Under the pieces are notes generated by a model. The model made no database searches. It saw only the letters and a program-made list of their open reading frames with translations, and had not been told where the DNA came from. Positions 1,475 to 47,718 of a stretch of DNA of 64,000 nucleotides are shown piece after piece. Source of the DNA: Dehalococcoidia bacterium (GTDB lineage Bacteria; Chloroflexota; Dehalococcoidia; Lucifugimonadales; UBA1123); the NCBI GenBank assembly GCA_021295915.1, contig JAGWBK010000001.1:139644-203643 (forward strand), in the 5' to 3' direction. Numbering within the stretch: position 1 is the stretch's first letter; every line of letters starts with the position of its first letter. The translations under genes and the position numbers were made by a program.

Positions 1475-2245
1475 CTAGTCCTCCTTGAGACCCTGCGAAA
1501 TAAGCTCTGCAAAGTGGGCAGGTCGAACCTGGCTACCGCGACGGCGCAGGCCACCACCGATGTGCATAAGGCAGCTTGTGTCGCACGCGGAAACGACGTC
1601 CGCGCCACTTCGCTCAATGCTGTCCAGCTTATCACTCAGCATTGCGCCAGAAATATCGGCGTACTTAACTGCGAATGTACCGCCGAATCCGCAACACACT
1701 TCGGCTTGGTCCAAATCCACTCGACGAAATCCGGGAACTGCATCGATCAAGGACTTTGGCTGAGCATCGATACCAAGCTCGCGCTTGGCGTGACAGGCCT
1801 CGTGGAAGGCTACTTCGACCTCATCTGCCGCGGACGTCTGGAACAGTTGCTCCAGTTCTGGCGGACCAACTTTGTCGACGAGGAATTCACTGAATTCATA
1901 GACATTTCCAGCCAGTGAACCCGCGCGAGCGAGATTGACCGGATCGTCGGCGAACAGTTCCTCGTAGTAGTTGCGGATCATCGCTGTGCATGATCCTGAA
2001 GGAATCACTACGGGAACAGAATGGTCCAGTTGGCCTAGGAGCCTTCTGGCGACAGGGCGAGCTTCGTTCCAGAATCCAGAGTTGAATGCTGGCTGTCCGC
2101 AGCAGGTCTGGGATGTGTCAAACTCGACCTCGATGTCGAGGGCCTCGAGTACGTCTACTACAGCCTCACCGACTTCAGGGAAGAACTGGTCAACAACACA
2201 TGTGACGAAAAGCTGTACGCGACGGCGGCCAGTTCGTTGAGTCAT
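1475..2245 (-). CDS. lutA: LutA-like (Fe-S) oxidoreductase, CCG-domain protein
   Basis: 256-aa ORF with the repeated cysteine-rich CCG pattern (TCCGQPAFNSG and VCCGFGGTF). It occupies the first position of a lutABC arrangement. Confidence 0.85.
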   Translation of the reverse strand: MTQRTGRRRVQLFVTCVVDQFFPEVGEAVVDVLEALDIEVEFDTSQTCCGQPAFNSGFWNEARPVARRLLGQLDHSVPVVIPSGSCTAMIRNYYEELFADDPVNLARAGSLAGNVYEFSEFLVDKVGPPELEQLFQTSAADEVEVAFHEACHAKRELGIDAQPKSLIDAVPGFRRVDLDQAEVCCGFGGTFAVKYADISGAMLSDKLDSIERSGADVVSACDTSCLMHIGGGLRRRGSQVRPAHFAELISQGLKED

Positions 2246-2300
2246 CCGAATATCTCACAAGTGACTCGAGGATCAGTCTTAACCGTCAAGGTACCTGGAG

Positions 2301-2597
2301 TCACAGTACAAGCCCGCGAACAACAAACCCGGCGATCCAGGTGATCATGAACACCCCGCCGCAGGCGAACAGCGCTCCTTCGGTCTCGCGCCGGGCCGGG
2401 CCATGCAACGCCAGATACGCAATAAACAGACCCAATCCAATTGCGATCAGCCAAACGGAAATTGAGTTCACGCCGAGTGCGAGGCCAATCGCGAAGCCTG
2501 TCACTCCCCACGTGATCCAGGAGTCCAGACGTCTGATAGTGGCCGCGAGCCAGGGTGGTCTAATGCGTTCAGTCAAGGAAACTATCCCGAAACTCAT
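2301..2597 (-). CDS. small integral membrane protein, unknown function
   Basis: I trimmed the ORF to the internal ATG at 2597 (MSFGIVSL...). This avoids overlap with the divergent VOC gene. It has two or three hydrophobic helices. Confidence 0.4.
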   Translation of the reverse strand: MSFGIVSLTERIRPPWLAATIRRLDSWITWGVTGFAIGLALGVNSISVWLIAIGLGLFIAYLALHGPARRETEGALFACGGVFMITWIAGFVVRGLVL

Positions 2598-2714
2598 GCT
2601 GATGCCTGCGTCCGTCAAGGAAGGATACACAGGCCGTCGGAGCGATGCAACGCAGATTGTCGCATGGTGGCCAGTGACGTAAACTCGGCACAGAACAGGC
2701 AAGGGAGGAGAGGC

Positions 2715-3158
2715 ATGGTAACCGGCTTCAATCACTCTGGATTCGTTGTCAAAGACATCAAGGCGATGGTGGAGTTCTACAGGGATACGCTCGGTCTAAA
2801 TGTCATGAGGGAGGTCGACAGTGTAGCCCCACCCGAAGGCGACCACACAGGCATTCCGGGAGCGCGTAGGACGTTAGTCTTCGTCGGGAAGCCTGAAGGT
2901 GAGCACGTCCTGGAACTTGTTCACTTCATCGATCCACCAAGTCCGGATGGGCACCTGCACAGGCATCAACTGGGCGCAGCCCACGTCTGCTTCAACGTCA
3001 GTGACCTCGCCGACCTTGCGTCCAAGCTCAAGGCACAGGGAATTAGGTTTATTACCGCCCCAATCTTCCACGAAATGCCGGACGGCAAGAGGCGAGGGAT
3101 ATGCTACATCCAGGATCCCGAGGGCAACTACGTTGAACTGATTCAACCGCCAACGTAG
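2715..3158 (+). CDS. VOC (glyoxalase/bleomycin resistance/dioxygenase) family protein
   Basis: The start at ATG 2715 is preceded by GGGAGGAGAGG. The N-terminus FNHSGFVVKDIKAMVEFYRDTLGL and the C-terminal YIQDPEGNYVELIQ are typical of VOC proteins. Confidence 0.8.
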   Translation: MVTGFNHSGFVVKDIKAMVEFYRDTLGLNVMREVDSVAPPEGDHTGIPGARRTLVFVGKPEGEHVLELVHFIDPPSPDGHLHRHQLGAAHVCFNVSDLADLASKLKAQGIRFITAPIFHEMPDGKRRGICYIQDPEGNYVELIQPPT

Positions 3159-3189
3159 CAGGGTCACACTGCCCTGTGGGTAGGTCTAA

Positions 3190-4272
3190 CTAGGAAGACT
3201 TCTGGTACACCTGGAAGCGGTGGCGGTTGGTCTCGACGACGTACATTTTGTCTTCTCTGTCGAGTCTGACTGCCACGGGACCCCAGAAGTACGGCTCGAC
3301 CTGAGAGGACGTGTGATAGGGGGTTTGGAGGTGTTCAGGCAGTTCGTCCGGGACGAGCTGCGATATCTGCCGGAGCTCCCATTCCTCGGGGTTGGACGAG
3401 TAGTAGTCAGCGGCCCACTTGGAAACTGTGGCCTGTCCTCTGAGCGTCGTCAAGAACGAGCCATCAGGATTGAAGACCTGTATCCGTTCGTTTCCCCAGT
3501 CGGCAACGGCCACAACTCCGTCCGATGCCACGGCGACACCGGATGGTCTACTAAGTTCCCCAGCACCCATACCGGACTTCCCATAGGTCTGTATGTAGTC
3601 ACCATCGGGTGAGAACTTCTGAACGCGGTCGTTACGCCAGTCGGCGACGTAAACTGCGTCATCCGGTCCAACCCCGACACCCCATGGCAGGTTGAACTGA
3701 CCGTTTCCTGACCCTGGCTCGCCCCAGGCGATGATCAATTCTCCGTCTGGCGACATCTTCTGAACGCGTCCGTTCTGTTGATCGGCTATGTAGAGATTGT
3801 CATGTGAATCGATTGCGATGCCCGCAGGTCCGCCAAACTGGCCGGGGTCCGAGCCCGCTTCACCCCACTGACTGACAAACTTGCCATCAGCATCATAGAT
3901 GCAAACGCGGTTGTTGTATTCGTCGGTAATGTACAGACGGTCTTCGCTGTCGAAAGCCATGGCCACGGGCCAGATAAGCTGACCGTCCCCCTGACCGTAA
4001 CCGTTTCCAAACTCGTACAGGTATTCTTCGTCGAGATTCAGCACGCCTACCCTGATGGCCACGGCACGAGCAGGGTCACAACGATTCAGTACAAAAATAC
4101 GACCGTCCGGACGAAAGGCGATGTCGTAGGGATTAGCGAACCCACGTCCGTTGTCGCCATTGTTTACGATGCCGATCGTCTTGAGGTAGTCGAAGCTGAG
4201 TGTGGTAGCGCTTTCCTGTGTGGTCAAGTTATAATCCCCATCTCCGTCAGCTTCTTGCCGGTCTGTCGCCAA
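3190..4272 (-). CDS. NHL-repeat beta-propeller protein
   Basis: 360 aa with about six repeats of the form GxFxxPxGIAxDxxGxxYVADxxNxRVQxF. Confidence 0.8.
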   Translation of the reverse strand: MATDRQEADGDGDYNLTTQESATTLSFDYLKTIGIVNNGDNGRGFANPYDIAFRPDGRIFVLNRCDPARAVAIRVGVLNLDEEYLYEFGNGYGQGDGQLIWPVAMAFDSEDRLYITDEYNNRVCIYDADGKFVSQWGEAGSDPGQFGGPAGIAIDSHDNLYIADQQNGRVQKMSPDGELIIAWGEPGSGNGQFNLPWGVGVGPDDAVYVADWRNDRVQKFSPDGDYIQTYGKSGMGAGELSRPSGVAVASDGVVAVADWGNERIQVFNPDGSFLTTLRGQATVSKWAADYYSSNPEEWELRQISQLVPDELPEHLQTPYHTSSQVEPYFWGPVAVRLDREDKMYVVETNRHRFQVYQKSS

Positions 4273-4333
4273 TGAGCCGGCGTTTACTTACACCGGCTCA
4301 TTCCTTCGGTCTTGCTGGCTCCTGAAGGCCTGT

Positions 4334-5755
4334 CTAAGCCAGTTGGTATTCCTTGGACGACGCGATCAGACGCATAACGTTAGCAACGGCCTCGACCGAC
4401 CCTTCGGCTTCAAGGTCCATGTCACCAAACTGCGATGCAAACTCGACGATCGCCTCTCGTGTGCTGTCCTCAACCTGCAGGGGCCCCATCAGGTCCAGGC
4501 AACCGTCCACGACGTCGGCAGCCGACTGGGCAGTACCGCCATCTCTGGCAAGCCTGTCCACGATTGCACGCACACCGGGGTTAGAGGGATTGCCAAGCTC
4601 TTTGGCGGCGAAGTTCACCCGCTCGACGAGTGAACCGCTGTCGATCCACTCTACGCCCTCGTGCCAGCCCTCCACCGTGGGGGGCTGGAGCAGCCCCTGC
4701 CCCATGTAGAAGGCCTGGCTGGCGAGCTGGTTCACGCCCAGGGTCGGCTGGCGGTAGGACCCCGCCATCCTGACCGCGCCAACAACTGTTTCCACAGGGG
4801 CCTTCACGCGCGCATAACGGGCCGCCTCACCCTTGAAGAACTCGGAGTTGAAGAGGGTCCTGAGTACCGACCTGATCTCGTAGTCGGATTCGAAGTAGGA
4901 AGCCATCATCTGCTCGATTGCAGCTTCCCCTCTCTCGTCGATCTCGTCAGCGCCGAAGAACTGGAACAGACGCGTGCAGATAAACCGTGCAGTCGCGTCC
5001 TGCCTGCAAATGATGTCGACAATTTCGCCGCCGCCGAAGGCTCCGCGCTCACCGAGGAATTCCTTGTCGCCTGTGTCATGGTCATCTTCGCGGTACTCGA
5101 AGTGCCACGCGATGCGGCCATACGGCCAGATCGAGTCCTTCATGGCTCGCATGGACATGTACTCGGCGTTCTTCAGAGTCCATCCTGTAAAGGCGCGAGA
5201 CGCCTCTTTGATGTCGTCCTCCGTGTAGTTGCCGATGCCCATCGAGAAGAGTTCCAGCAGCTCTCTGCCGTAGTTCTCGTTGATGGCGCCGTCATGGTTA
5301 TCGTTATTGTCCAGCCAGATAATCATGGCCGGGTCCTTGGACAGCTCGATGAGAATATCCCTGAAGCTGCCGAACCCTGTGCGCTTGAACATATCTACCT
5401 GGTTCAAGAGAGCCCTGGCCTGGTTCAGCTTCGCATAGCCCGTCGCAAACAGACCGTGCCAGAAGAGCGCGAGCTTCTCCTCTAGAGGATGATTCGTCGT
5501 AATCATCTGGTACATCCAGTACGCGCCAGCGCCGTCCAGCTGGCGAAGCTCAGACTGGTCGACATGGTAGCGACGAATCAGATCGTCGGGAAGGTTCTCC
5601 CGGCTGTCAGCCGAGGGATGCAGCAGGTCCTCGACTACGTTCTCGTAGCCTCTTGCTACCTGCTCCTCCAGCTCCTCGCGGCCGGCTCCGAAGCCGGCCC
5701 TGCGCATGAGATGGGCCATCAGTGCAACGTCTGCCGTAGTGGTGGTCATCTGCAC
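4334..5755 (-). CDS. DUF1800 domain-containing protein
   Basis: 473 aa. The N-terminal HLMRRAGFGA motif is characteristic of DUF1800. It lies directly downstream of a DUF1501 gene, which is the usual pairing. Confidence 0.8.
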   Translation of the reverse strand: MQMTTTTADVALMAHLMRRAGFGAGREELEEQVARGYENVVEDLLHPSADSRENLPDDLIRRYHVDQSELRQLDGAGAYWMYQMITTNHPLEEKLALFWHGLFATGYAKLNQARALLNQVDMFKRTGFGSFRDILIELSKDPAMIIWLDNNDNHDGAINENYGRELLELFSMGIGNYTEDDIKEASRAFTGWTLKNAEYMSMRAMKDSIWPYGRIAWHFEYREDDHDTGDKEFLGERGAFGGGEIVDIICRQDATARFICTRLFQFFGADEIDERGEAAIEQMMASYFESDYEIRSVLRTLFNSEFFKGEAARYARVKAPVETVVGAVRMAGSYRQPTLGVNQLASQAFYMGQGLLQPPTVEGWHEGVEWIDSGSLVERVNFAAKELGNPSNPGVRAIVDRLARDGGTAQSAADVVDGCLDLMGPLQVEDSTREAIVEFASQFGDMDLEAEGSVEAVANVMRLIASSKEYQLA

Positions 5756-5788
5756 AATCCTCCTGAGTGTGAAATCAATTGAGACGTC

Positions 5789-6928
5789 TTAGGCGGGAAG
5801 GAAGTCAAACTGCTCGAACCTGCCGTTAACGATCGGTTCGGAGTCGAGGTGGAACCAGCGTTCCAGCAGCGTCGAATAGGTCATCCTGAAATCGTTGTTG
5901 TAGTGAAGGTCGCCCTCAAGCTGCATGTCAGGCGCCAGTGAGGGATACTGTCCGTAGAGTCCGCCCTTAACCTCGCCTCCGATCACGAAGGCGGTGCCGC
6001 CGGAGCCGTGGTCCGTGCCGGAGCCATTGTCCTTGACGCGGCGACCGAACTCGGAGAATACGAGGATCACGGCGTCGTTCTCACGGCCATGCTCCCTGAG
6101 GTCGTCGTAGAAGTCGCCGATTCCACCAGCGACCTCATCCCAGAGCTTGGCGTGACTTACCAACTCACCTGAGTGGGTGTCGAAACTGCCGTGCTGGGTG
6201 TAGAAGACCCTGGTGCCAAGATCTGCCAGCATCACCTGGGCGACGCTCTTTAGGCTCTGAGCGATCGGATTGGCTGCGTACTCGATTGAGGACTGGTACT
6301 GAGCAGGAGCGGTCCTCAGAATATCAGCGCCCTTCAACGCGTCGGTTCCCGTCTGGCCAAGGAAGTCCATAACGGCGTCCCTGCCCTGCGCGCCTCCGTA
6401 CATCTTTGCGAATGCATCGAGTGCGTACTTTCGCAGGAACTCGTCCTGCACGTCAGGGAACAGTCCATACGTCTCAAGGTTTCCGACGGAAGCAACAGGT
6501 ACACCTCTTACGCCAAGCGCCCTGGGCATTCCCCTTCCGAAGTTGACCGCGGTCAGAACGTTGTCGCCGGTCGGGTCCAACTCGCGTGTTGCGCGGCCAA
6601 GCCAGCCCTCTCGGCCGATCTCGTCCGGCATGGCAGTGTGCCATATGTCCATCGAACGGAAGTGAGACCTGTTAGGGTTGGGGTAGCCGATCCCGTTGAT
6701 GACCGCGACCTTACCCTCGTCCCACAGGCGCTTGACCGGTCCCATGCTCGGGTTGAACGCGAGGTCGTCGCTGATGGGATGCACCGCGTCACCATCAACG
6801 TGGACCGTCTGTCTGTAGTCGTAATAGAGACCGTCGTTGTAGGGTACGACGGTGTTGAGGGTGTCGTTCCCTCCGGAAAGCTGAACGACTACTAGGGTCT
6901 TGTCGTGGTTGCCATTCTGCGTAACCAT
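5789..6928 (-). CDS. DUF1501 domain-containing protein (sulfatase/alkaline-phosphatase-like fold)
   Basis: 379 aa with LSGGNDTLNTVVPY near the N-terminus and GTDHGSGG near the C-terminus. No Tat or Sec signal is visible. Confidence 0.8.
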   Translation of the reverse strand: MVTQNGNHDKTLVVVQLSGGNDTLNTVVPYNDGLYYDYRQTVHVDGDAVHPISDDLAFNPSMGPVKRLWDEGKVAVINGIGYPNPNRSHFRSMDIWHTAMPDEIGREGWLGRATRELDPTGDNVLTAVNFGRGMPRALGVRGVPVASVGNLETYGLFPDVQDEFLRKYALDAFAKMYGGAQGRDAVMDFLGQTGTDALKGADILRTAPAQYQSSIEYAANPIAQSLKSVAQVMLADLGTRVFYTQHGSFDTHSGELVSHAKLWDEVAGGIGDFYDDLREHGRENDAVILVFSEFGRRVKDNGSGTDHGSGGTAFVIGGEVKGGLYGQYPSLAPDMQLEGDLHYNNDFRMTYSTLLERWFHLDSEPIVNGRFEQFDFLPA

Positions 6929-7121
6929 TGAAACGCTCCCTTTTTGAACGATTCCAGAATCTGCTGAATCTATGCAGAGAATCTACTACTTCCAGCCTCC
7001 TGACGCAAGACTTGGCACACCTCCAGCGTCTGATTAAATTGGATTCATGCCGTACCTGGTGACATAATCTCAGTACACGACGTTTTGAACTCGCATCTAA
7101 GGGAACAGGAAGACTCAAAAC

Positions 7122-7952
7122 ATGCAGAAGTCAGCAGCTGAATCATGGAGACTCCGAGTAGAGTCACATCACGAACAGTCGCTAAAAGTCATGGATGAAT
7201 CGTGGCGTCAGGGTGACTTCTGGAAGAACCTGGCCCCAATGTTCAGGGCAGACCCTCGTCGGAACGACGACGAGGCGCTGAACGCCATCTCAGAACTCAT
7301 CGGTTCCGTTTCAACCGTGCTCGACGTTGGAGGCGGTGCAGGCAGGTTCGCCATCGCTCTTTCGTTGAAGTGCGAGTCGGTGACAGTGGTTGACCCATCA
7401 GAGTCAATGCTGGAGCAGTTGCAGGAAGCAACCAACGAGGCTGGGCAGTCAAACGTCGCTTCCGTCCATTCAGAGTGGGAGACTGCAGAAATTGAACCAG
7501 AGGACGTTGTCCTCTGTTCACACGTCGTCTATGGCGTCGCCGACATAATACCATTCATCGAGAAGATCAACGCTCATGCACGGCGACGAGTAGTGCTGTT
7601 GTCTTTCGTTGATTCCCCGCAGTCGAACGTCGCAGCACTCTGGGAGCCTGTGCACGGTGAGCGCAGGATCAACCTACCAGCGATGCCTGAGCTAGTGAAT
7701 GTGCTATGGGAGATGGACGTCTATCCCAGCATCCGGATGTTGACCTCTACGAGAGCGCAGTCATTCGAGTCAGTAGACGCCGCTACCGAGGAGTTGTCCA
7801 ACAGGCTGTTCCTTGCCCAGGATTCCCCCGCCCGCCAGAGACTCGAGGCAGTGATCGAAGACTACCTCGAGTCCACGGACGAGGGTTGGCGAGTCATTGG
7901 TGCCAGACCTGTGAGGCAGGGTGTCATCTGGTGGGACACCGAGTCACGTTAG
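7122..7952 (+). CDS. class I SAM-dependent methyltransferase
   Basis: 276 aa with SAM-binding motif I, VLDVGGGAGRFA. Confidence 0.75.
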   Translation: MQKSAAESWRLRVESHHEQSLKVMDESWRQGDFWKNLAPMFRADPRRNDDEALNAISELIGSVSTVLDVGGGAGRFAIALSLKCESVTVVDPSESMLEQLQEATNEAGQSNVASVHSEWETAEIEPEDVVLCSHVVYGVADIIPFIEKINAHARRRVVLLSFVDSPQSNVAALWEPVHGERRINLPAMPELVNVLWEMDVYPSIRMLTSTRAQSFESVDAATEELSNRLFLAQDSPARQRLEAVIEDYLESTDEGWRVIGARPVRQGVIWWDTESR

Positions 7953-7961
7953 AGGCTGAAT

Positions 7962-9677
7962 CTAGAGTCCCTCAGCATACGCTGAATGGAACGTATCCAC
8001 GCCGGCTCGGAAGCCGCCATCACCGTCCCTGACGATGGCAACAGGGCTCGCGAAGCTGGCGAAGCCGCCCTGCACGTGATTGTCGCCAATGACGTATATG
8101 CGGTGACCTTTGCCCTCCAGTTCCGCTACCACGTCTGCCGAGAGCCTTGGATCCACGCTGGTGACAGGCAGGGAGCAGTCGACCCTCGGCGAGTCTATAG
8201 CCTCCTGGGGGCCAATGCCATAGTCAACGACCTTCGAGATCAGTTGCGTTACACAGTTGGTAATTCGGCGTCCTCCGGATGCACCTACGGCGAGCCGCAC
8301 ACCATCGTCGCCCATAACCAGGGCTGGAGTCATATTATTCAGTGGGTACTTGCCTGGCATGATCGAATTCACCCGCCCGGGAACCGGGTCGAACCACATC
8401 ATCCCATTGTTCATCACGACGCCCGTTCCCTTCGGAACGAATCCGGAACCGAATCCAGCCATCAGCGTGTTTGTTAGTGAAACTGCGTTACCGTCCCCAT
8501 CCATCGCGCACAGGTGAGTAGTTCCAGCGTCAAGTGCTGGAGCGCTCGCAGCGAGCTTCTTGCCAGGTGCGCCCTCATCAAATGCCCACGGGTCCCCGAC
8601 TTCGATATTTCCCAATCGCTCGGAGTCGATCTGTCCACGTCGTAGCTCGGTGTAGCCGTCTGAAACAAGCCCCTTCCAGGGGGCGTCGACGAATGCCGGA
8701 TCCGCCATGTAGGCGAACCTGTCTGCATAGGCCAGGCGGGCGCCGTATATGTAAGCGTGAAGCGCATCGGCTGAGTTGTGACCCATCGATGCAACGTCGA
8801 AACCGTCAAGCGACCGAAGCGTCATGGCGGACGTCGTCCCTGCACATGCGAACGGCGGCACTCTCACGGTATGTCCTCGATAGCCAAACTCAAGGCCGGA
8901 GTCCCACACGAATGGACGATACTCGGCAAGATCTTCCTCGGAAACAATTCCGCCCTTAGCCTGAATGTCGGAGGCAAGAGCCCGCGCAATCTCGCCAGCA
9001 TAGAACGCAGATGGGCCTTCTCTTCCGATTGCGTCGAGCACGTCGCCGAGGTCAGGCTGCTTAAGCAAAGCAGGGCTTGTGAGATCACCTGCGGGCAACC
9101 TTCCCCCAGGCATGAAGACGTTTCGCAGCTCGTCGAAGTCGAAAAGGCGTGACGCCATCAGCCCCAGCGCGTACATGTTGTGCCACCCCGGAGAGTGCCC
9201 GTCCCTCGCCAGAGAGACAGCCGGGGCGATCACCTCCTTGAGGGGGAGTTTGCCAAGCAACCTGTGAGCCTCACACAAGCCTGCAACCGCGCCAGGTACG
9301 GCGATTGATCGGGGACCATCGAGATTCTCATCGTTGACGACGCCCGCCCATCCAAAGTTTCCGACTGCGGCCTCGCCGGTGAGTTCATACATGTCCGGCT
9401 TGGCAGCCAGGGGACCCTTCATCGGAAATCCGACTACTCCTCCCCTGTCCCCCAATTGGTACACGAGATATCCGCCGCCACCGATACCACTCGACATCGG
9501 TTCGACGACCCCAATGGCAAAACAGGCTGCGACCGCCGCATCGACGGCATTGCCGCCCATTTCAAGCATCTGCACGCCTGCTCGCGTTGCGTGGATGTCT
9601 TTTGTGGCGACCATGCCTCGCTGGGCACGCGCTTCAGTCTTGTTGATAGTTGTAAGAGTCGGCGTTGCAGTGACCAT
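7962..9677 (-). CDS. ggt: gamma-glutamyltransferase
   Basis: 571 aa. The autoprocessing and nucleophile region is DAGTTHLCAMDGDGNAVS, and there is a C-terminal GASGG motif. Confidence 0.9.
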   Translation of the reverse strand: MVTATPTLTTINKTEARAQRGMVATKDIHATRAGVQMLEMGGNAVDAAVAACFAIGVVEPMSSGIGGGGYLVYQLGDRGGVVGFPMKGPLAAKPDMYELTGEAAVGNFGWAGVVNDENLDGPRSIAVPGAVAGLCEAHRLLGKLPLKEVIAPAVSLARDGHSPGWHNMYALGLMASRLFDFDELRNVFMPGGRLPAGDLTSPALLKQPDLGDVLDAIGREGPSAFYAGEIARALASDIQAKGGIVSEEDLAEYRPFVWDSGLEFGYRGHTVRVPPFACAGTTSAMTLRSLDGFDVASMGHNSADALHAYIYGARLAYADRFAYMADPAFVDAPWKGLVSDGYTELRRGQIDSERLGNIEVGDPWAFDEGAPGKKLAASAPALDAGTTHLCAMDGDGNAVSLTNTLMAGFGSGFVPKGTGVVMNNGMMWFDPVPGRVNSIMPGKYPLNNMTPALVMGDDGVRLAVGASGGRRITNCVTQLISKVVDYGIGPQEAIDSPRVDCSLPVTSVDPRLSADVVAELEGKGHRIYVIGDNHVQGGFASFASPVAIVRDGDGGFRAGVDTFHSAYAEGL

Positions 9678-11685
9678 TATTCTGTCCTCTCGGATGTCTC
9701 TTTAACCCGGGCATTTTGGCTAGATTTTCGGCGAGACCTGGTACTTCGGTCTCGCCGGTGACTACTGTAACAGATGATCCAACGAAGTCATTGTCGATAG
9801 GCTCATACCTGCCGCCAAGGCACTTCGCGAGGAATGCCTCGGCCATTGCCATGAAGGCAATGTTGTTCTCCTGCCTCCTGAAGCCATGTCCCTCATCCGG
9901 AAACAGCACATAAGTCACCGGTATGCCATGGCCAGTCATTGCCCCAACGATCTGGTCGGATTCAGCCTGCTTGACCCTGGGATCGTTAGCACCCTGTCCT
10001 ATGAGCAGTGGCCTCTCTATTCTGTCCGCGAAAGTTAGGGGAGACCTTTCAGCAAGGAATTGTCTCCCTTCCAGAGTCGAGTTGTCTCCCACACGGGTCC
10101 TGAACATGGCGATCTCCGGCTCCCAGTACGGAGGCACGGTATCAAGGAGCGTATTGAGGTTCGAGGGCCCCACCACATCGACTCCGCAGGCGAACACTTC
10201 AGGAGTAAAGGTCAACCCGACAAGGGTCGCGTATCCCCCATAGCTGACACCCATGATGGCGATCTTGTCTCTGTCGGCGATCCCTGTTTCAACGGCCCAG
10301 TTGACGACGTCGATCAGGTCGTCATGCATCTTGCCCGCCCACTCGCGGTTGCCAGCATTTACGAAGGGCTTTCCAAAACCCCACGAGCCACGGAAGTTCA
10401 CGGAGATTACCGAGTAGCCTCGGCTGGCCCATAGCTGATGGCCGGGCACGAATCCCCAGCTGTCTCTCCCCCAAGGTCCACCGTGTACCAGAAGAACAGC
10501 GGGAGGCGGTCCTTCTTCACAGGAGGTCCACGTAGGCTGCGTGTAGTAGACGGTGAGGTCCAGCCCGTCTCGTGACCTGACAGTTGCCGATTGCATTGGG
10601 GCCAGCTTGTACTTTTCCAGCTCAGGACGGTTCGAGAAGAGGAACTGGAGACTCTTGGCTTCTCGCTCGTACAGGTAGAAGTCCAGTGGGCCGACGTCCT
10701 GTTCATGCGCGACCACCCAACGTCCGTCGTCTAGCGACCGGCTCGTCAACCAGTAGTCGTTTCCGAACTCTCCATGCAGGACGTCGAGGTCGTCAATAAT
10801 GGAGTCATCTATTGACACCCAGTGGGCTCGTTCGTGTTCGATCGAGACCGCCTGTGGTCTACCTGTCGACGGATGAATCATGAATCCAGTTATATCTGCA
10901 TGTGAGTCAACCGCAAGTTCCCTCTCCTCATGAGAGTTCAAGTCCAGTTCGACCAACGCGGAGGTGTCCCGGTTCCTACTGTCGAGCATGAACAGCGTTC
11001 TGCCATTCGAGTCGAGTCCTAGAGGGTGAGTTGTTATTTCATCCTCGGGCCCAACGTCCATCAGCTTGCGCCACTCACCCAAGGGGTGTCTGTGAAGAAA
11101 CTGAGAACCGCCATCCGGTGTGGACAACTTTGCGAGCCTGACAGTTAAGTCCAAGTCTGCAACGAACAAAGTAGCGCCAATGTCGTTCTCGAACTCAATG
11201 GTCGACCCTCCCGACACCATGTTGACCCTATGGATGTCGTGGAAGCGTCCGTCCCTATTGTTGATTTCAACCAGCACCTCGTCAGGATGCCTTGAAGAGA
11301 GTGCCAGTACGCGGGCATGGATGTCCTCGTAGGGCGTTAGGTCCCTTGTTTCCAGTGTGATTAGGTGAGTCGCGTACAGATGCCAGTTCTCGTCCGCGGC
11401 CTCATCCTGCACGTGGAGGAGGTAGTCTGAGTTGTAAGGCCAGATGTAGAACGGGATTCCCCTCTCTTGATCATTGGTAACTGGCTTCGCCTCGTCAATT
11501 GAATCCAGTGGTGACACCCAGACGTTCATGACGCGGTTGACTGGTGCAAGGAATGCAAGACGTCTCCCATCCCTGCTGACTTTCGCGAAGTTTCGTTCGG
11601 AGTTACCGTACAGGATTCGCCGGGGAATCAGGTCCGTTTCGCGATCGCTTTTCAAACTGGGAACCTCCGGAATGAGATATGCCAA
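9634..11685 (-). CDS. S9 family serine peptidase (prolyl oligopeptidase / dipeptidyl aminopeptidase type)
   Basis: 683 aa with an N-terminal beta-propeller region and a C-terminal alpha/beta hydrolase domain carrying GVSYGGY (GxSxGG). The 3' end overlaps the ggt start by 44 nt. Confidence 0.85.
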   Translation of the reverse strand: MAYLIPEVPSLKSDRETDLIPRRILYGNSERNFAKVSRDGRRLAFLAPVNRVMNVWVSPLDSIDEAKPVTNDQERGIPFYIWPYNSDYLLHVQDEAADENWHLYATHLITLETRDLTPYEDIHARVLALSSRHPDEVLVEINNRDGRFHDIHRVNMVSGGSTIEFENDIGATLFVADLDLTVRLAKLSTPDGGSQFLHRHPLGEWRKLMDVGPEDEITTHPLGLDSNGRTLFMLDSRNRDTSALVELDLNSHEERELAVDSHADITGFMIHPSTGRPQAVSIEHERAHWVSIDDSIIDDLDVLHGEFGNDYWLTSRSLDDGRWVVAHEQDVGPLDFYLYEREAKSLQFLFSNRPELEKYKLAPMQSATVRSRDGLDLTVYYTQPTWTSCEEGPPPAVLLVHGGPWGRDSWGFVPGHQLWASRGYSVISVNFRGSWGFGKPFVNAGNREWAGKMHDDLIDVVNWAVETGIADRDKIAIMGVSYGGYATLVGLTFTPEVFACGVDVVGPSNLNTLLDTVPPYWEPEIAMFRTRVGDNSTLEGRQFLAERSPLTFADRIERPLLIGQGANDPRVKQAESDQIVGAMTGHGIPVTYVLFPDEGHGFRRQENNIAFMAMAEAFLAKCLGGRYEPIDNDFVGSSVTVVTGETEVPGLAENLAKMPGLKRHPRGQNNGHCNADSYNYQQD

Positions 11686-11945: not shown

Positions 11946-12968
11946 TCAGTTCCCTACTGGTCTCAGGACGCCCACAAACGGCAGATTCCTATAGGACTCC
12001 ATGTAGTCGAGACCGTAGCCAACGAGGAACTCGTCCGGCGCTTCGAAACCCACGTACTTGACATCAACGTCCGCGATTCGCCTTGCCCGCTTGTCGAGTA
12101 GAGCGCAGACTTCGACGGTAGCCGGTTGGCGAGACTGCAAGTGAGCGATCAGCCAGTTCAACGTCATTCCAGTATCCACGATGTCCTCAACCAGGATGAC
12201 GTCCGAGCCGTCGATACCCAGATCCAGCCCTTTAGTAACTCTGATATCCGGCCCATGCTCCCCGGCATAGCGCGAAATGGACATGAAGTCCATACGAGTG
12301 GGCAGCGAGATCTGGCGCATAACGTCTGCCATGAAACAGACCATTCCTCTCTGTACGCCAATCAGTACGGGGCGCTTGCCTGCATAGTCTCGTGAAATCG
12401 TCCTCCCTAGCTCCTGCACCCTCTGCTGAATCTGACGCTCCGAGTATAAGACACGGGAAATGCCGGGCAGGTCGGACTCGACGAGGGGGCCAAACCCGAA
12501 CTTCGCCAGAAGACGGTGAAAGTCCCTCCGGTACAGGAGTTTTATGTTAACTTCGGGATACAGTTCCCGGATGCGCCTGAGCTTGCGATTCTTCTGAGTA
12601 ACCAGCGACTGCTTCATGGTCGTTAGTTCAAGGTAGAGATCGAGATCAGGCAGATAGAAGTCCGGGGTAAGCATTTCGGTGGCCCGGTCACCATCCCATC
12701 GGAGAGGGAATGAGAGAGGCTCATAGTCCCAGCGAAGACCGTAGAAGTCCAGAATTCTCGCGAACTCTAGCTCGCTAGGATGAGCAAAATTGGGTTCAGC
12801 CCCGCCTGCCACGTTGGGCACGGGAGTGAACCTGGACGTTTCGACATCGACCAACCGACACCTCCGCGTCAAACCGGCACGCTCCAGTGTTTGACCGCAA
12901 GGATAGCACATACGCGCTAGATGATAAATCCGCTGCCCTTGCACTATACATGACAGTGGATTGACCAT
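11946..12968 (-). CDS. hpt: hypoxanthine phosphoribosyltransferase with an N-terminal extension of about 160 aa (nuclease-like fold)
   Basis: The C-terminal 175 aa carries the PRPP-binding motif VILVEDIVDTGMTL and ends GYGLDY..YRNLPFVGVL. The N-terminal part has a PD-(D/E)xK-like pattern (TPDFYLPDLDLYLELTTMK). The start codon is uncertain. Confidence 0.85.
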   Translation of the reverse strand: MVNPLSCIVQGQRIYHLARMCYPCGQTLERAGLTRRCRLVDVETSRFTPVPNVAGGAEPNFAHPSELEFARILDFYGLRWDYEPLSFPLRWDGDRATEMLTPDFYLPDLDLYLELTTMKQSLVTQKNRKLRRIRELYPEVNIKLLYRRDFHRLLAKFGFGPLVESDLPGISRVLYSERQIQQRVQELGRTISRDYAGKRPVLIGVQRGMVCFMADVMRQISLPTRMDFMSISRYAGEHGPDIRVTKGLDLGIDGSDVILVEDIVDTGMTLNWLIAHLQSRQPATVEVCALLDKRARRIADVDVKYVGFEAPDEFLVGYGLDYMESYRNLPFVGVLRPVGN

Positions 12969-12989
12969 AGTTCCGGCGCTTCATATAAT
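12961..12989 (+). promoter_or_regulatory. sigma70-like promoter, TTGACC-N17-TATAAT, for the 343-aa/UGSC gene pair
   Basis: The -35 is at 12961-12966 and the -10 at 12984-12989, about 30 nt upstream of ATG 13019. The -35 overlaps the annotated hpt start on the other strand. Confidence 0.5.
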
Positions 12990-13018: not shown

Positions 13019-14050
13019 ATGACAAGTGGGCAACTGAGTTCGGCACGACTGGAGTTCGACTCATGGAATGAAGTCGTGGAAGGATTCATGGACCGTGGAT
13101 GGACGGACGGCCTTCCGATCATTCCCCCGACTCCAGACCTCGTCAACGCCTGCCTTGATGCAGGGGGACGCAATCCATCAGACATACTTGCGACTGAGCC
13201 CACCAAGGGTAGAGTGATCACCGCAGAGAAAGTGGCGGTGAACGCCGTCATGGCAGGCTGCAAGCCAGAGTATTTCAAGGTCGTCGCAGCTGCCGTCGAA
13301 GCGATGAGCGAACCTCAATTCAATCTGCACGCCATCACGGCCAGCACACAGGGTTCGGCCCTGCTTGCCCTCGTAAACGGTCCGGTTGCCAAAGAGATCG
13401 GCTTGAACTCCGGTGTCAGCGTATTTGGGCCAGGGCATAGGGCAAACGCCACTATTGGGAGGGCTATCCGCCTTGTAGTCATCAACGCCACCGGCTCCCG
13501 GTCGGGGGAGATCGATAAGGCTACGCTTGGCCATCCAGGCAAGTACACGTGGTGTATGGCTGAGGCCGAGGACGTCTCGCCCTGGGAGCCGTTCCAGGCT
13601 AACAGGGGGTTCTCCGAGGAGCAGAGTACGATCACTCTGTTTCCCGCACTCTCCCCTATCCAGGTCGACAACCACGCGTTCCAACGTCCTGAGGAGATCC
13701 TGGTCTCGTTCCGTGAAGCCATGTTTGCCGGCGGAGGCGGATGGAACCAGGGGGAGGTCGTAGTCGTCCTCTGCCCTGAGCACGTCGGGAATTTGGAACG
13801 CGCCGGCTGGAGCAAGGAGCAAGTGCGCGAGTTTCTTCATGACTCGGCGAGGCGTCCTATAGATGAGTGGCGCGCGGCGGGAAGATACATAAGGGACGAT
13901 GTGGGACAGCCTGGCGATGAACTACACTCACTCAATAGTTCGGAAGGTATTTCAATTGTTGTTGCAGGCGGTGGCGCTGGAGCGTTCTCCTGTGTAATAC
14001 CATTGTGGAGCGGTGGAATTGGAGCTAGATCGGTAACCCGGTTAATCTAG
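13019..14050 (+). CDS. conserved-looking protein of unknown function, upstream partner of the UGSC selenoprotein
   Basis: 343-aa ORF with coding-like composition and motifs GWTDGLPIIPPT, NAVMAGCKPEY and ANATIGRAIRL. I do not recognise the family. Its stop is 13 nt before the UGSC gene. Confidence 0.7.
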   Translation: MTSGQLSSARLEFDSWNEVVEGFMDRGWTDGLPIIPPTPDLVNACLDAGGRNPSDILATEPTKGRVITAEKVAVNAVMAGCKPEYFKVVAAAVEAMSEPQFNLHAITASTQGSALLALVNGPVAKEIGLNSGVSVFGPGHRANATIGRAIRLVVINATGSRSGEIDKATLGHPGKYTWCMAEAEDVSPWEPFQANRGFSEEQSTITLFPALSPIQVDNHAFQRPEEILVSFREAMFAGGGGWNQGEVVVVLCPEHVGNLERAGWSKEQVREFLHDSARRPIDEWRAAGRYIRDDVGQPGDELHSLNSSEGISIVVAGGGAGAFSCVIPLWSGGIGARSVTRLI

Positions 14051-14063
14051 GAACAAGAGGAGG

Positions 14064-14609
14064 ATGCTGATGACAACTGCAGAACTCGTAGTATTGGATC
14101 CCACGGTAGAACCCCTACCGTCGGAAGGGGTCGTCGCGGACCGACCGACCACGCTGGACGGGCTAACGTTGGGACTTCTTGCGAATGGGAAGTTGAACTC
14201 GGTTGAGATGCTCACGGCGATCCACGACGTGCTGGCCGACAGGTTTGAATTTGCTTCCGTAGTGGAGCGAAACAAGCACAATGCCTCTCGACCATGTCCC
14301 GAGGAGATCATCGACGAGCTTGTCGATAAGTGCGACGTGGTGGTCACGTCATCGGGCGATTGAGGGTCCTGCTCGTCGTGCAGTGTGCACGACGGAATTA
14401 CCCTTGAGAAACGCGGAGTCCCGACAGTAGTGATCTGCACAGAGCCCTTCATCACGAGCGCTGACGCCATGGCAGCGTTGGGCGGAGTTCCTGACTACCC
14501 ATATGTGGTGGTACCCCACCCGCTGGGAAGCAGGACGATGGAGCAGCTCAGGGAGCTTGCCGCAGCGGCAGCACCTGATGTGCTGTCCATACTTCTCGCT
14601 CAGAAGTAG
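14064..14609 (+). CDS. UGSC-family selenoprotein (GrdB C-terminal-like), with in-frame TGA = Sec at 14361-14363
   Basis: ORFs 14064-14363 and 14385-14609 share one frame. Reading through the TGA gives ...DVVVTSSGD-U-GSCSSCSVHDGITLEKRGVPTVVICTE...VPHPLGS. A GGAGG lies just upstream of the ATGs at 14064 and 14070. A SECIS-like hairpin follows the TGA. Confidence 0.8.
14374..14394 (+). promoter_or_regulatory. bacterial SECIS-like hairpin
   Basis: Perfect 9-bp stem cgtcgtgca/tgcacgacg with apical GUG. It starts 10 nt after the TGA at 14361-14363. Confidence 0.6.
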
Positions 14610-14662
14610 AAGTTAATAGTACCGGGCGAGAGCCACTTCTCGCCTAAGACCAGGAAAAGAGA

Positions 14663-14692
14663 GCGACCACACCCAAGCTTGGGTGTGGTCGC
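14663..14692. terminator. bidirectional intrinsic terminator (perfect 30-nt palindrome)
   Basis: The palindrome gcgaccacacccaagcttgggtgtggtcgc is flanked by an A-rich tract (aaaagaga) upstream and a T-rich tract (cttgcttt) downstream. It sits between the convergent UGSC gene and tRNA-Sec. Confidence 0.65.
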
Positions 14693-14714
14693 CTTGCTTT
14701 GTCCCTAGGAGAAC

Positions 14715-14823
14715 TGGCGGGAGCGAGAGGGAGTCGAACCCACCGCGCCAACCGCTGGGTTGCCGCCGGACGGTTTTGAAGACCGCGAGAGGGTGTAAAA
14801 GATGGTACCTCGAGAGGGCTTCC
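14715..14823 (-). tRNA. selC: tRNA-Sec-like gene (anticodon UCA); 5' boundary uncertain
   Basis: The minus strand reads GCGGU-CUUCAAA-ACCGU, with anticodon UCA at 14777-14779. It has a long extra arm containing CCAGCGG, a GGGUUCGACUCCC T-arm and a terminal GCCA. The D-arm and 5' acceptor strand could not be folded convincingly by hand. Confidence 0.6.
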
Positions 14824-14873
14824 TTGAAGCCCACCAGGGGCCGTGTGCAAGAGCCCACTGGCGTGGCCGTGAG

Positions 14874-15200
14874 TTAGGCTATTGCCTCGTCGACGCGCTT
14901 CTTCAGCATGGACTTCGGGACGGCGCCCACCACCTGGTCAACTGCCTTGCCCTCGTTGAAGATGAGCAGTGAAGGAATTCCACGAATACCGAACTGCATG
15001 GCGGTCTTGGGGTTGGAGTCTACGTCCAGCTTCGTGAACTTCACCTTGCCCGCATACTCGCCGGCCAGTTCTTCGACAATTGGGGCGATCATCTTACAGG
15101 GACCGCACCACTCGGCCCAGAAATCTACCACTACGGGAACGTCCGAGTTAACGACCTCGTCCTCAAAAGTGGCGTCTGTAATCTCAACTGCGTTTGCCAT
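14874..15200 (-). CDS. trxA: thioredoxin
   Basis: 108 aa with the active site WAEWCGPCKM. Confidence 0.95.
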   Translation of the reverse strand: MANAVEITDATFEDEVVNSDVPVVVDFWAEWCGPCKMIAPIVEELAGEYAGKVKFTKLDVDSNPKTAMQFGIRGIPSLLIFNEGKAVDQVVGAVPKSMLKKRVDEAIA

Positions 15201-30317: not shown

Positions 30318-31688
30318 ATGGTCTCAAAATTTCGAGCGTTGCCGTCCGTTAATGACGTGCTAAGTGATCCCCGAATTGCCGAGCTTGTCGAGAAGTACTC
30401 GCACGAGGCAATAGTGGACATCGTGCGGGAGGAGCTGGACGGAGCAAGAAGTTCGATCAGCTCCGGCGGTGAGCCCCCTGATGCGGACGCACTGACCAAG
30501 TCCGTGGCAGCCGAGGCAGAGTCCAGGTGGCGGCCATGGCCACAGGGCGTGATAAACGCCACTGGTGTTGTACTGCACACAAACCTCGGCAGGGCGCCGT
30601 TAAGCAGCAGCAGTTTCGAGGCCATGAGAGTCGCCGCTGCCGGATACAGTGACCTCGAATTCGACCTTGCGGCAGGAAGGCGCGGTTCTAGGCAGCAGCA
30701 CGTCTCGAACCTGATATGCCAGACGACCGGTGCCGAGGCCGCGTTGGCGGTCAACAACAATGCGTCGGCCGTGATGCTCGGACTTGCAGCAATTGCAACC
30801 GGTAAAGAGGTGATCGTTTCGAGGGGTGAGGCCGTCGAGATCGGCGGCGGATTCAGGATTCCTGACGTACTGAGCCAGAGTGGGGCGACTCTTGTTGAAG
30901 TTGGTACCACCAACCGTACGTACGCCTCTGACTTCGCCTCTGCCATCAACGAACGAACAGGAGCAATCCTGTCAGTTCACGCCTCTAACTTCAGGGTCAT
31001 GGGATTTACGCATGCGCCTACTACAGCGGAACTCGTGAACGTTGGAGAGAGTTCGGGTGTGCCGGTGCTTCACGATCTGGGCAGTGGTTGTCTGCTGGAT
31101 TCGAGTAAGTATGGACTTGCCCACGAACCGATGCCGCAGGAGAGCATCTCAGCGGGCGTCGCACTCAGCTTCTTCTCGGGAGACAAACTGCTGGGTGGTC
31201 CACAGGCCGGGATAATTGCCGGCCAGAGCGAGTACGTTGCCACTGTGTCGCGGCACCCACTGGCCAGGGCAGTCAGGATCGACAAGTTGAGCATGGCAGC
31301 CCTGTCAGCAACTCTTCTCCACTACATCAACGGAGACCCCGAATCCGAGGTCCCGGTCTGGCGGATGATCTCGGCCACGATAGCCGAACTGACAGCACGC
31401 GCCGACTCCTGGAAGTCGGCAGCCGGTCCGGGGGCAAGTGTCGTCAGTGCAAGATCGGCCATAGGCGGCGGCAGCCTGCCGGGCGAGACACTGGAATCCG
31501 TCGCGCTCCGCATCGACTGCAACGAGTTGGGTACTACCCCCGACGTCGCTCTCAGCGAGCTAAGGAAGGGAACGCCGCCGGTCATTGGCAGGATCGAGGA
31601 TGACAGTGTCATGCTCGATCCCAGGACTGTACTACCCGAACAGGACGAGGCAGTTGCTGGCACAATACAGCGCCTCATGAGTGTGTGA
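30318..31688 (+). CDS. selA: L-seryl-tRNA(Sec) selenium transferase
   Basis: 456 aa. The N-terminus is FRALPSVNDVL and the PLP lysine region is FSGDKLLGGPQAGII. Confidence 0.9.
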   Translation: MVSKFRALPSVNDVLSDPRIAELVEKYSHEAIVDIVREELDGARSSISSGGEPPDADALTKSVAAEAESRWRPWPQGVINATGVVLHTNLGRAPLSSSSFEAMRVAAAGYSDLEFDLAAGRRGSRQQHVSNLICQTTGAEAALAVNNNASAVMLGLAAIATGKEVIVSRGEAVEIGGGFRIPDVLSQSGATLVEVGTTNRTYASDFASAINERTGAILSVHASNFRVMGFTHAPTTAELVNVGESSGVPVLHDLGSGCLLDSSKYGLAHEPMPQESISAGVALSFFSGDKLLGGPQAGIIAGQSEYVATVSRHPLARAVRIDKLSMAALSATLLHYINGDPESEVPVWRMISATIAELTARADSWKSAAGPGASVVSARSAIGGGSLPGETLESVALRIDCNELGTTPDVALSELRKGTPPVIGRIEDDSVMLDPRTVLPEQDEAVAGTIQRLMSV

Positions 31689-46656: not shown

Positions 46657-47718
46657 GTGGTCGACACCAGCGAACAGATCAGATTGACGAGCCTTGCCAG
46701 CTGTGCGGGTTGAGCCTCTAAATTCAGCCCAGAGGATCTGGGCCAAATCCTGAGTCAGCTCCCACCCGTCTCGGACGAGAACCTGCTCGTCGGAGTGAAC
46801 ACCGGCGACGATGCCGCTGTGTATCGGATGAGCGACGACACCGCCCTCATCCAGACAGTGGACTTCTTCCCGCCGATAGTGGACGACCCGTACGCATTCG
46901 GCCAGATTGCAGTCGCCAATGCGCTCAGTGACGTCTACGCTATGGGCGGCGAGCCCCTCATCGCATTGAACATAGTTGGATTCCCTGTTGCCCTGCCCAA
47001 GGACATACTTGGGTCGATTCTCATCGGCGGCGCGCACAAGGCACAGGAGGCCGGCGTGCTGATAGTCGGCGGGCACACCGTCGACGATGAAGAGCCCAAA
47101 TACGGCCTATCCGTAACTGGAGTTGTGAAGCCTGGTGACGAGGTCACGAACGCAGGGGCTCGGCCCGGCGACAAGCTTGTTCTCACCAAGCCGATCGGCA
47201 CCGGAATCATAACCACGGCAGGCAAGCAGGGTGTGGCTGGAGAGGACGTGATAGCGTCCGCAGTCGAGATTATGAGCACCCTCAACCGGGATGCTGCCCA
47301 CGCCATGACTTCGGTCGGAGTAAACGGCTGCGTCGACGTGACTGGGTTCGGTCTGCTGGGTCACCTGCGCGGAATGACGCGTGCCAGTGGCGTTTCTGCT
47401 ACTGTCGAGCTCGGCGCAATCTCCTTCATCCCCGGAGCCCAGGCTCTGGCGGAAGAGGGCGTTGCCCCGGGTGGAACTCACCGGAACCTCCAATCGCTCG
47501 AGCCTGACGTAACATGGGACGAATCAGTTACTGATATTCAGAAGCTGCTTCTGGCCGATGCACAGACATCCGGCGGGCTGCTCATCTCAGTCCCTGTCTC
47601 TTCCACGGTCGCGCTCATCGACGCCCTGGAACACCACGGTGTTCAGACGCACGCGGTGATCGGATCGATTGGTGAATCAGGCCAGAACGGTGGTCCTTCG
47701 ATTCACGTGTCTGCCTGA
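46657..47718 (+). CDS. selD: selenide, water dikinase (selenophosphate synthetase), with in-frame TGA = Sec at 46711-46713
   Basis: The GTG at 46657 follows GGGAGGA. Read-through gives MVDTSEQIRLTSLASCAG-U-ASKFSPEDL..., joined in frame to the 46795 ORF (NTGDDAAVY...). The Sec/Cys-Lys N-terminal loop is the known SelD active site. Confidence 0.9.
46727..46743 (+). promoter_or_regulatory. bacterial SECIS-like hairpin
   Basis: Perfect 7-bp stem gcccaga/tctgggc with a GGA loop. It starts 13 nt after the TGA at 46711-46713. Confidence 0.55.

Follow-up and report, generated by a model that had tools for sequence, protein, structure and literature searches.

The UGSC family of selenoproteins has been known since 2007–2008, when it was described as the ‘UGSC-containing protein’ (Zhang & Gladyshev), but is still without an assigned function. 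In ocean and freshwater metagenomes it ranks with the four or five most abundant selenoprotein families, with 255 sequences in the Global Ocean Sampling (GOS) data and 8.2% of marine selenoprotein genes in a later survey of marine metagenomes worldwide. Hyphomonas neptunium is one reported carrier. The 2008 paper (Zhang & Gladyshev) suggests a thioredoxin (Trx)-like fold for the protein and notes a ‘UGSC/Unknown_1’ fusion. Here we analyse a UGSC gene, and the gene for a protein of 343 amino acids (aa) lying directly upstream of it, in a stretch of 64,000 nucleotides (nt) from a Dehalococcoidia bacterium (contig JAGWBK010000001.1, positions 139,644 to 203,643), referred to below as the window. 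The two proteins are likely to be the subunits of a widespread selenocysteine (Sec)-dependent thiol/selenol oxidoreductase fed by a thioredoxin-type donor. Taken as a new find, the selenoprotein would not qualify, being a member of a named family with curated hidden Markov models (HMMs) and a literature going back to 2007–2008. What is new, relative to the curated records and the literature searched, is its near-obligatory 343-aa partner of unsolved fold and the modular redox architecture of the pair. The partner is undescribed in the curated UGSC records and the searched literature, leaving aside Unknown_1 of 2008, which may be the same family.

The closest described systems are the Sec-containing proteins GrdB, GrdF, GrdH and PrdB. 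UGSC proteins share with them the surroundings of the Sec residue, cysteines spaced as U-x-x-C(-x-x-C) and an HP(L/I) motif further downstream; in both groups Sec is near-obligatory and there is a second, larger subunit, and re-reduction of the thioredoxin type is plausible for UGSC too. The differences are considerable. UGSC is less than half the size of GrdB, lacks its N-terminal ~320 residues and is predicted to be a single flavodoxin-like domain. Its partner is unrelated by sequence to GrdE/PrdA, GrdA and GrdC/D are missing within ~6 kb, and the hosts are mostly aerobes.

Two further groups invite comparison. Selenoproteins of the thioredoxin fold with UxxC or CxxU motifs (Trx-like, Prx-like and DsbA-like) carry U-x-x-C at a strand–helix junction, as UGSC does, but for the UGSC domain a flavodoxin-like fold is predicted, and its putative catalytic partner has no known fold. 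Thioredoxin-fused thiol reductases (Trx-MsrA/MsrB) have a redox carrier fused or operon-linked to the catalytic domain, as here, and similarly the UGSC partner of many lineages carries a fused redoxin-like CxxC domain. Within the UGSC family the protein of the window shows no difference and is a plain member: the length of ~170–180 aa, the D-U-G-S-C motif, the in-frame TGA, the hairpin resembling a selenocysteine insertion sequence (SECIS) and the aquatic Chloroflexota/SAR202-type host are all alike.

The selenoprotein and its selenocysteine codon

The features of the two-gene operon are as follows.

13019–14050, + strand: open reading frame (ORF) of the 343-aa protein, the conserved UGSC partner, from a family without a model (taken from the ORF list)
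14059–14063, + strand: Shine–Dalgarno sequence GGAGG of the UGSC gene, read from the sequence, 6 nt before the ATG at 14070
14070–14609, + strand: UGSC-family selenoprotein gene, with matches to PF24696 and NF041046 and the frame kept on both sides of the TGA
14361–14363, + strand: TGA read as selenocysteine (the U of UGSC), the single in-frame TGA
14374–14394, + strand: SECIS-like hairpin found by RNA folding, a 9-base pair (bp) stem CGUCGUGCA / UGCACGACG with a GUG loop

A first-pass annotation, made from the letters of this stretch, had reported a 343-aa ORF followed by a selenoprotein ORF with an in-frame TGA, and both are present. It gave the selenoprotein 181 aa and the gap before it 13 nt. 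These figures hold for a start at ATG 14064. As GGAGG at 14059–14063 abuts this first ATG, the likelier start is ATG 14070, which yields 179 aa and a gap of 19 nt; the same start was chosen by an independent gene call on a related locus (L081).

The smaller protein matches Pfam PF24696 with an E-value of 4.9e-59 and 199.8 bits (cut-off 25) and NCBIfam NF041046, ‘UGSC family (seleno)protein’, with 149.5 bits (cut-off 125), the Sec position being read as Cys in these scans. Because both HMM scores exceed the curated cut-offs, it is by profile comparison a clear member of the UGSC family. The Sec site reads VVVTSSGD-U-GSCSSCSVHD. Among the 69 homologous loci reached through the partner protein, the Sec column is TGA in 65 and Cys (TGC) in the remaining four, namely three Mycobacterium loci and one paralogue. 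It is TGA in every one of 82 Dehalococcoidia loci and again in all 80 loci that an alphaproteobacterial UGSC query retrieved. The tally over the three sets is thus TGA in 227 locus hits against Cys in four, and in relatives the stretches before and after the TGA are both conserved as coding sequence. On this comparative evidence the TGA at 14361–14363 is a real instance of Sec recoding.

The hairpin that would direct recoding begins 10 nt past the UGA and has a folding z of –3.2. Its core, GUGCA-GUG-UGCAC, recurs in distant phyla at equal spacing from the TGA. Since the mean z over 66 loci is –1.4, the RNA structure gives the SECIS assignment moderate support. The core is encoded by the codons of C-S-V-H (UGC AGU GUG CAC), and as the stem is made of these very codons the peptide motif and the RNA structure would constrain each other; the three Cys-form mycobacterial UGSC genes have another peptide at this position.

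The fold of the UGSC domain was predicted from a homologous fusion protein rather than from the protein of the window. The AlphaFold model is a single flavodoxin-like alpha/beta domain whose best matches in the PDB are lumazine synthase and CheY-like proteins, with template modelling (TM) scores of ~0.5 on the target. In the model of a Cys-form fusion the C-G-S-C motif lies at the end of a beta strand where a helix starts. The predicted flavodoxin-like fold contradicts the thioredoxin-like one suggested in 2008. A profile search of the PDB with the UGSC alignment gave chance Rossmann-like matches only, with neither GrdB nor PrdB among them.

Linkage of the two proteins

Three sets of loci were examined for association of the two genes. 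With the 343-aa protein as query, a UGSC gene lies directly downstream, on the same strand, in 70 of 80 loci; these loci come from Chloroflexota (Dehalococcoidia), Pseudomonadota (Burkholderiales, Rhodobacterales, Hyphomonadaceae), Methylomirabilota, Binatia, Actinomycetota (Mycobacterium), Myxococcota and others. When the UGSC protein of the window was the query, the partner was found upstream in 78 of 80 Dehalococcoidia loci, or 78 of 79 testable, one of the two exceptions having too little upstream DNA. A UGSC query of alphaproteobacterial type reached Chloroflexota, Alpha- and Gammaproteobacteria, Myxococcota, Actinomycetota and Acidobacteriota; here the partner is adjacent in 68 of the 75 testable loci and elsewhere within the locus in four more.

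The two domains are also fused, and in both orders. UGSC-343 fusions are found as full-length Cys forms of 530–590 aa, one of which is named ‘UGSC family (seleno)protein’ at NCBI, and as Sec forms, which gene callers begin after the TGA. The gene models of 343-UGSC fusions, conversely, end at the TGA. AlphaFold modelling of one natural fusion (P0184) gave a predicted local distance difference test score (pLDDT) of 94.3 and a predicted TM-score (pTM) of 0.94, the linker being of low confidence. As the pTM is this high despite the poorly defined linker, the UGSC and 343 domains are predicted with confidence to pack in a fixed arrangement. The linkage counts and the fusions rule out a chance adjacency of two ORFs. 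The first-pass annotation had proposed conserved linkage to UGSC homologues across genomes as a check on the pair, and the counts and the fusions bear it out: to judge from these comparisons, the 343-aa protein and UGSC are physically and functionally linked.

Some Dehalococcoidia/SAR202 genomes carry two distinct 343-UGSC loci, and the module has therefore diversified into paralogues. Examples are OZ242283.1 (L024 and L141), OZ241992.1 (L032 and L111) and SAR202 bin90, MPND01 (L034 and L142), whose 343 proteins are ~42–44% and 60–63% identical to that of the window.

In Mycobacterium szulgai, M. gordonae and M. simulans (L043, L046 and L049, at ~4900–10000) the pair is of the Cys form, with CGSC, with genes for a divergent LysR regulator, a CoA-transferase of family III and an acyl-CoA dehydrogenase around it. 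These flanks are the only context that suggests a metabolic pathway.

The 343-aa partner family

The first-pass annotation could not place the 343-aa protein in any family, and rightly so: neither it nor any of 74 relatives has a Pfam or NCBIfam match at E ≤ 0.1. SinI and similar Pfam or NCBIfam matches of the family were rejected as noise. The family is very large, a word-indexed search finding more than 7900 homologues and an exhaustive search 5048 clusters at 50% identity. The only name given to homologues is ‘hypothetical protein’, and Pfam domains are absent throughout. The AlphaFold model of the window protein is of high quality (pLDDT 95.3, pTM 0.93). The best TM-score found by Foldseek against the PDB is ≤0.27, and a sequence-profile search of the PDB with the family gave no match at E ≤ 10. 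Class I fumarate hydratase, the ‘Toblerone’ cyclic amide hydrolases, IRG1 and SelD/ThiL appeared in the Foldseek comparison with TM-scores of 0.15–0.27 and were dismissed as not meaningful. On present evidence, then, the modelled fold has no solved structural relative.

Eight residues (D30, P33, C81, G121, N143, R148, E182 and G317) show no variation among 81 sequences drawn from many phyla, and K175, R141 and W189 are nearly invariant. C81 and the seven other invariant residues are candidates for a catalytic role.

Variants of the partner were also observed. Tandem pairs of the 343 domain make up proteins of ~710–740 aa without a Pfam match (P0124, P0126, P0127, P0128, P0144 and P0162). In Poribacteria (L056, L063, L066, L069 and L076, at ~6000–6950) there are stand-alone homologues of 315–332 aa that keep all the invariant residues; in at least L063, L066 and L076 short ORFs follow the homologue, one of those in L063 encoding a CBS-domain protein.

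Association with thioredoxin-type domains

About 30 of 80 homologues of the 343-aa protein have an N-terminal extension of ~180 aa. Where tested, the extension matches Redoxin or AhpC-TSA and contains a CxxC motif (e.g. VKEDCPTC). It is joined to the 343 domain through a conserved PGCGSK segment, and most of the redoxin-343 genes still have a UGSC gene after them. These fusions are Rosetta-stone evidence, at the level of sequence, that a thioredoxin-type dithiol works with the module. A stand-alone homologue of the fused redoxin domain was found neither in the window nor in the Dehalococcoidia loci.

A triple fusion of 549 aa (P0169) was also noted; it unites the C-terminal part of a Sec-form UGSC protein, the 343 domain and the catalytic component of ferredoxin:thioredoxin reductase (FeThRed_B). 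It hints at a ferredoxin-fed variant.

The window has a thioredoxin gene of its own close to the pair, as the first-pass annotation had stated.

14874–15200, – strand: trxA, encoding ~108 aa with the WCGPC motif (...WAEWCGPCK...), from the ORF list; its orthologue in L082 matches PF00085

The L082 orthologue is 97% identical and matches Pfam Thioredoxin, PF00085. Among 242 loci, trxA adjoins the pair in 25. Each of these also has selC (the gene for tRNA-Sec), and together they represent a single syntenic block of a single Dehalococcoidia lineage; the neighbour is absent from the other 217 loci. As a general conserved partner trxA was for this reason rejected. The proposal of the first-pass annotation that the reductase is fed by thioredoxin is thus plausible as regards the type of donor, given the fused CxxC domain in ~30 of 80 homologues, but it gains no independent evidence from the adjacent gene. 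The trxA next door is compatible with a thioredoxin-fed enzyme and is not evidence for one.

Similarity to GrdB-type proteins

Residues 74–163 of the UGSC protein of the window match the GrdB model TIGR01917 with an E-value of 2.2e-6, over positions 320–404 of its 431. The score is 26.9 bits against a cut-off of 602; with TIGR01918 it is 23.2 bits (cut-off 65) and with the PrdB model 16.3 bits (cut-off 300), and the GrdF, GrdH and PrdB models give weaker matches. Only ~85 residues around the Sec align with the GrdB-type models, which are ~430 aa long (238 aa for PrdB). Seven of 18 diverse UGSC proteins match a GrdB-type model at E < 0.01, the position of the aligned region at the Sec site being reported for the window protein. 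The match is weak but reproducible and suggests remote homology of UGSC to the Sec-bearing C-terminal region of GrdB/PrdB. The resemblance that the first-pass annotation had pointed to is thus found where it was seen, around the Sec residue, but as a distant relationship far below the family cut-offs. Identification of the protein as GrdB was rejected, since its scores are far below those cut-offs (27 against 602 bits) and the Pfam GRDB model is silent.

No grdA, grdC, grdD or grdE lies within ~6 kb on each side, judging by the Pfam annotation of the syntenic contig L082, the whole window not having been scanned exhaustively. The neighbours within that distance are a phosphoribosyltransferase, a peptidase of family S9, gamma-glutamyltranspeptidase, thioredoxin, a class V aminotransferase, an arginase-family enzyme and S-adenosylmethionine decarboxylase.

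Expression signals, the tRNA-Sec remnant and the selenocysteine machinery

Signals at the two ends of the operon and the gene beyond it are listed here.

12961–12989, + strand: sigma-70-like promoter TTGACC-N17-TATAAT, matching 11 of 12 consensus positions
14663–14692, both strands: terminator-like hairpin in the gap between the UGSC gene and the selC remnant, with a stem of 13–14 bp and T-rich tails on both strands
14715–14790, – strand: remnant of selC, the 3' 76 nt, identified by an Rfam match of 30.3 bits and by alignment with L083 and L084

The promoter noted by the first-pass annotation is present, and both hexamers are kept in seven of eight related loci amid diverging intergenic DNA. 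Such a phylogenetic footprint argues in favour of a real promoter. At the other end, the putative terminator closes the operon.

The tRNA-Sec gene of the first-pass annotation did not survive comparison. A complete tRNA-Sec was taken to have an 8-bp acceptor stem, a 6-bp D stem, a long variable arm and a score above the gathering threshold. The gene of the window scores 30.3 bits with Rfam RF01852, below the gathering score of 47, and ARAGORN finds no tRNA anywhere in the 64-kb window; the same program finds an intact tRNA-Sec of 98–99 nt at the corresponding position in relatives. Alignment with the closest relative (L083, OY762210.1, 98% aa identity) shows that in the window the 99-nt tRNA is short of exactly its first 23 nt, and the flanks are collinear, as they are with L084 and L082. 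Over 14715–14823 of the – strand, this loss is seen against relatives that are 91–98% identical. The missing 23 nt, GGGAGCGGATAGGGCCTGGTGGC, comprise the 5' strand of the acceptor stem and, from the D arm, the first half. The 76 nt that are left match the intact relatives, with a 78-nt BLAST match to L001 that is 100% identical, and retain the UCA anticodon (14777–14779), the anticodon arm, the variable arm, the T arm and CCA. Five of the eight acceptor pairs still form, apparently by chance; from its sequence the remnant cannot form the acceptor stem. Neither the deletion junction nor an intact junction with flanks of the window type was found in public genome or metagenome contigs, and an independent contig with an identical 343-aa protein ends inside the tRNA.

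Two other genes of Sec synthesis are located in the window.

30318–31688, + strand: selA, L-seryl-tRNA(Sec) selenium transferase (Pfam SelA, 8.5e-129)
46657–47718, + strand: selD, itself encoding Sec, with GTG start at 46657, TGA at 46711–46713 in SCAGUASK, and AIRS and AIRS_C domains

The presence of selA and of a Sec-type selD further supports Sec recoding. The ORF finder starts selD only at 46795. selB was not found in the window, the 620-aa GTPase at 59192–61054 being BipA/TypA. In Alphaproteobacteria the pair is itself part of a Sec cluster in the order selA – selB – tRNA-Sec – (redoxin-343) – UGSC – Ndh-SelD fusion. Such clusters were seen in L035, L036, L039, L040, L059, L062, L070, L073, L078 and L080 (at ~1900–9900) and also in L209–L231; the hosts are Hyphomonadaceae, the Roseobacter group and Caulobacterales, and the Ndh-SelD fusion follows UGSC in at least five loci.

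A possible mechanism

In the two-subunit oxidoreductase that we favour, the large subunit of 343 aa would bind the substrate in a conserved polar pocket with C81, D30, N143, R148, E182, K175 and usually C179, and the UGSC subunit would supply the U-x-x-C centre. The selenolate may attack the substrate, or an intermediate between substrate and enzyme, on the large subunit. The Cys three residues downstream would then resolve the adduct, leaving a selenenylsulphide, and this would be re-reduced by the dithiol of a thioredoxin-fold domain, which in many lineages is fused to the large subunit. In the lineage of the window, without the fused domain, free thioredoxin may serve as donor, possibly the TrxA next door. 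The conserved Arg, Lys, Asp and Glu residues suggest that the substrate is a small charged metabolite. Because Sec is almost exclusive over Cys, a role for selenium as nucleophile or leaving group is argued for, beyond that of an electron carrier. Of the minimal Sec reductase put forward in the first-pass annotation, the linkage of the two proteins and the plausibility of a thioredoxin-type donor are retained, but the role of the 343-aa protein as a GrdE/PrdA-like substrate binder is an inference. The finding is rated as a variation on the theme of Sec-dependent reductases, not a categorically new system.

Several observations weigh against such an enzyme, or against its working in this strain. 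The adjacent selC is truncated in the window, and unless another selC exists translation of the UGSC messenger RNA would terminate at the UGA. The Methylomirabilota group of the 343 family has Val in place of C179, and for some members of that family (those of Poribacteria and of certain loci in Anaerolineae and Tepidiformales) a UGSC gene is absent from the surrounding 6 kb. The Pfam GRDB model gives no match to the UGSC protein of the window at E ≤ 1. No metabolic gene is kept beside the pair across phyla, as judged by Pfam on 289 flanking ORFs, so that the surroundings say nothing about the substrate; the neighbours (SelA/SelB/Ndh-SelD, rhaM-like, CBS, CoA-transferase III, short-chain dehydrogenase/reductase and LysR) are specific to lineages. 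The literature contains no experiment on either protein, and UGSC is still listed as uncharacterised in reviews up to 2026.

Alternative explanations

The similarity at the Sec site raises the question of whether the pair is a minimal Grd/Prd-type reductase, cleaving the C–N (or C–S/C–X) bond of an amino-acid-like substrate with the 343-aa protein in the role of GrdE/PrdA and Sec as the nucleophile. The window protein and other members align there with the GrdB, GrdF, GrdH and PrdB models, and UGSCSSC in the window protein has the U-x-x-C-x-x-C spacing that is typical of GrdB. The preference for Sec over Cys (227 to four) is as in Grd/Prd enzymes and suggests demanding chemistry, not plain disulphide exchange; the CoA-transferase III and acyl-CoA dehydrogenase of Mycobacterium would fit the breakdown of a short acid product. 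Yet none of 75 members of the 343 family matches Pfam Gly_reductase (GrdE/PrdA) or any other family, and nothing points to a self-cleavage site that would form a pyruvoyl group, the invariant G80-C81 lying between two predicted helices. The third Cys of UxxCxxC has gone in several clades, the similarity to GrdB amounts to 27 bits of the 602 demanded, and grdA, grdC and grdD are not nearby (~6 kb, from the L082 annotation). The hosts, moreover, are mostly aerobic heterotrophs and not Stickland fermenters. We regard this version of the enzyme as unlikely. A service to selenium metabolism, such as reducing selenium species or delivering them to SelD, would explain why the pair sits between tRNA-Sec and Ndh-SelD in at least 10 alphaproteobacterial selA – selB clusters, with more in the second set, and abuts selC in one Dehalococcoidia lineage. 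But clusters of Sec machinery commonly adjoin the selenoprotein gene that they serve, and such adjacency is expected of ‘cargo’. Most loci have no sel gene nearby, the Cys forms of Mycobacterium lie beside acyl-CoA genes, and the two or more paralogous pairs of some SAR202/Dehalococcoidia genomes suggest diversification of substrates. A role in selenium metabolism is very improbable.

A different kind of doubt concerns this strain and not the family. The truncated selC would leave a UGSC fragment of 97–99 aa, and the locus could be decaying or silent here, a recent pseudo-operon; or else the 23-nt gap could be an artefact of assembly or sequencing. The gap is precise and costs the tRNA its 5' acceptor strand as well as half the D arm, no other tRNA is found in the 64 kb, and an independent contig with an identical 343-aa protein stops inside the tRNA. 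Set against this, the window has undamaged genes for UGSC, SelA and the Sec-type SelD, L083 combines an intact selC with proteins 98% identical to the 343-aa protein and UGSC, searches of other public contigs did not recover the deletion junction, and a second selC may lie elsewhere in the genome. We think decay or artefact distinctly improbable. If the deletion is real and there is no second selC, neither UGSC nor SelD could be made in the strain.

Implications

Beyond the two-subunit oxidoreductase itself, a bolder proposal may be entertained tentatively. The 343 family may be the catalytic, substrate-binding subunit of an unrecognised class of Sec-dependent reductases, with a fold unlike any solved structure, served always by UGSC and often by a fused thioredoxin-fold domain. 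This class might be the ‘cargo’ that keeps selA-selB-selC-...-selD in many aerobic aquatic bacteria, and its diversified SAR202 paralogues might act on different substrates.

Expression of the Cys-form fusions, P0184 and P0271 among them, and of the Mycobacterium pairs does not require the Sec machinery, and the partner family merits a database model. The module has two subunits, UGSC and a member of a very large family with neither a curated model nor a structural relative. An orphan selenoprotein thereby becomes, some twenty years after its discovery, a defined and testable enzyme candidate.

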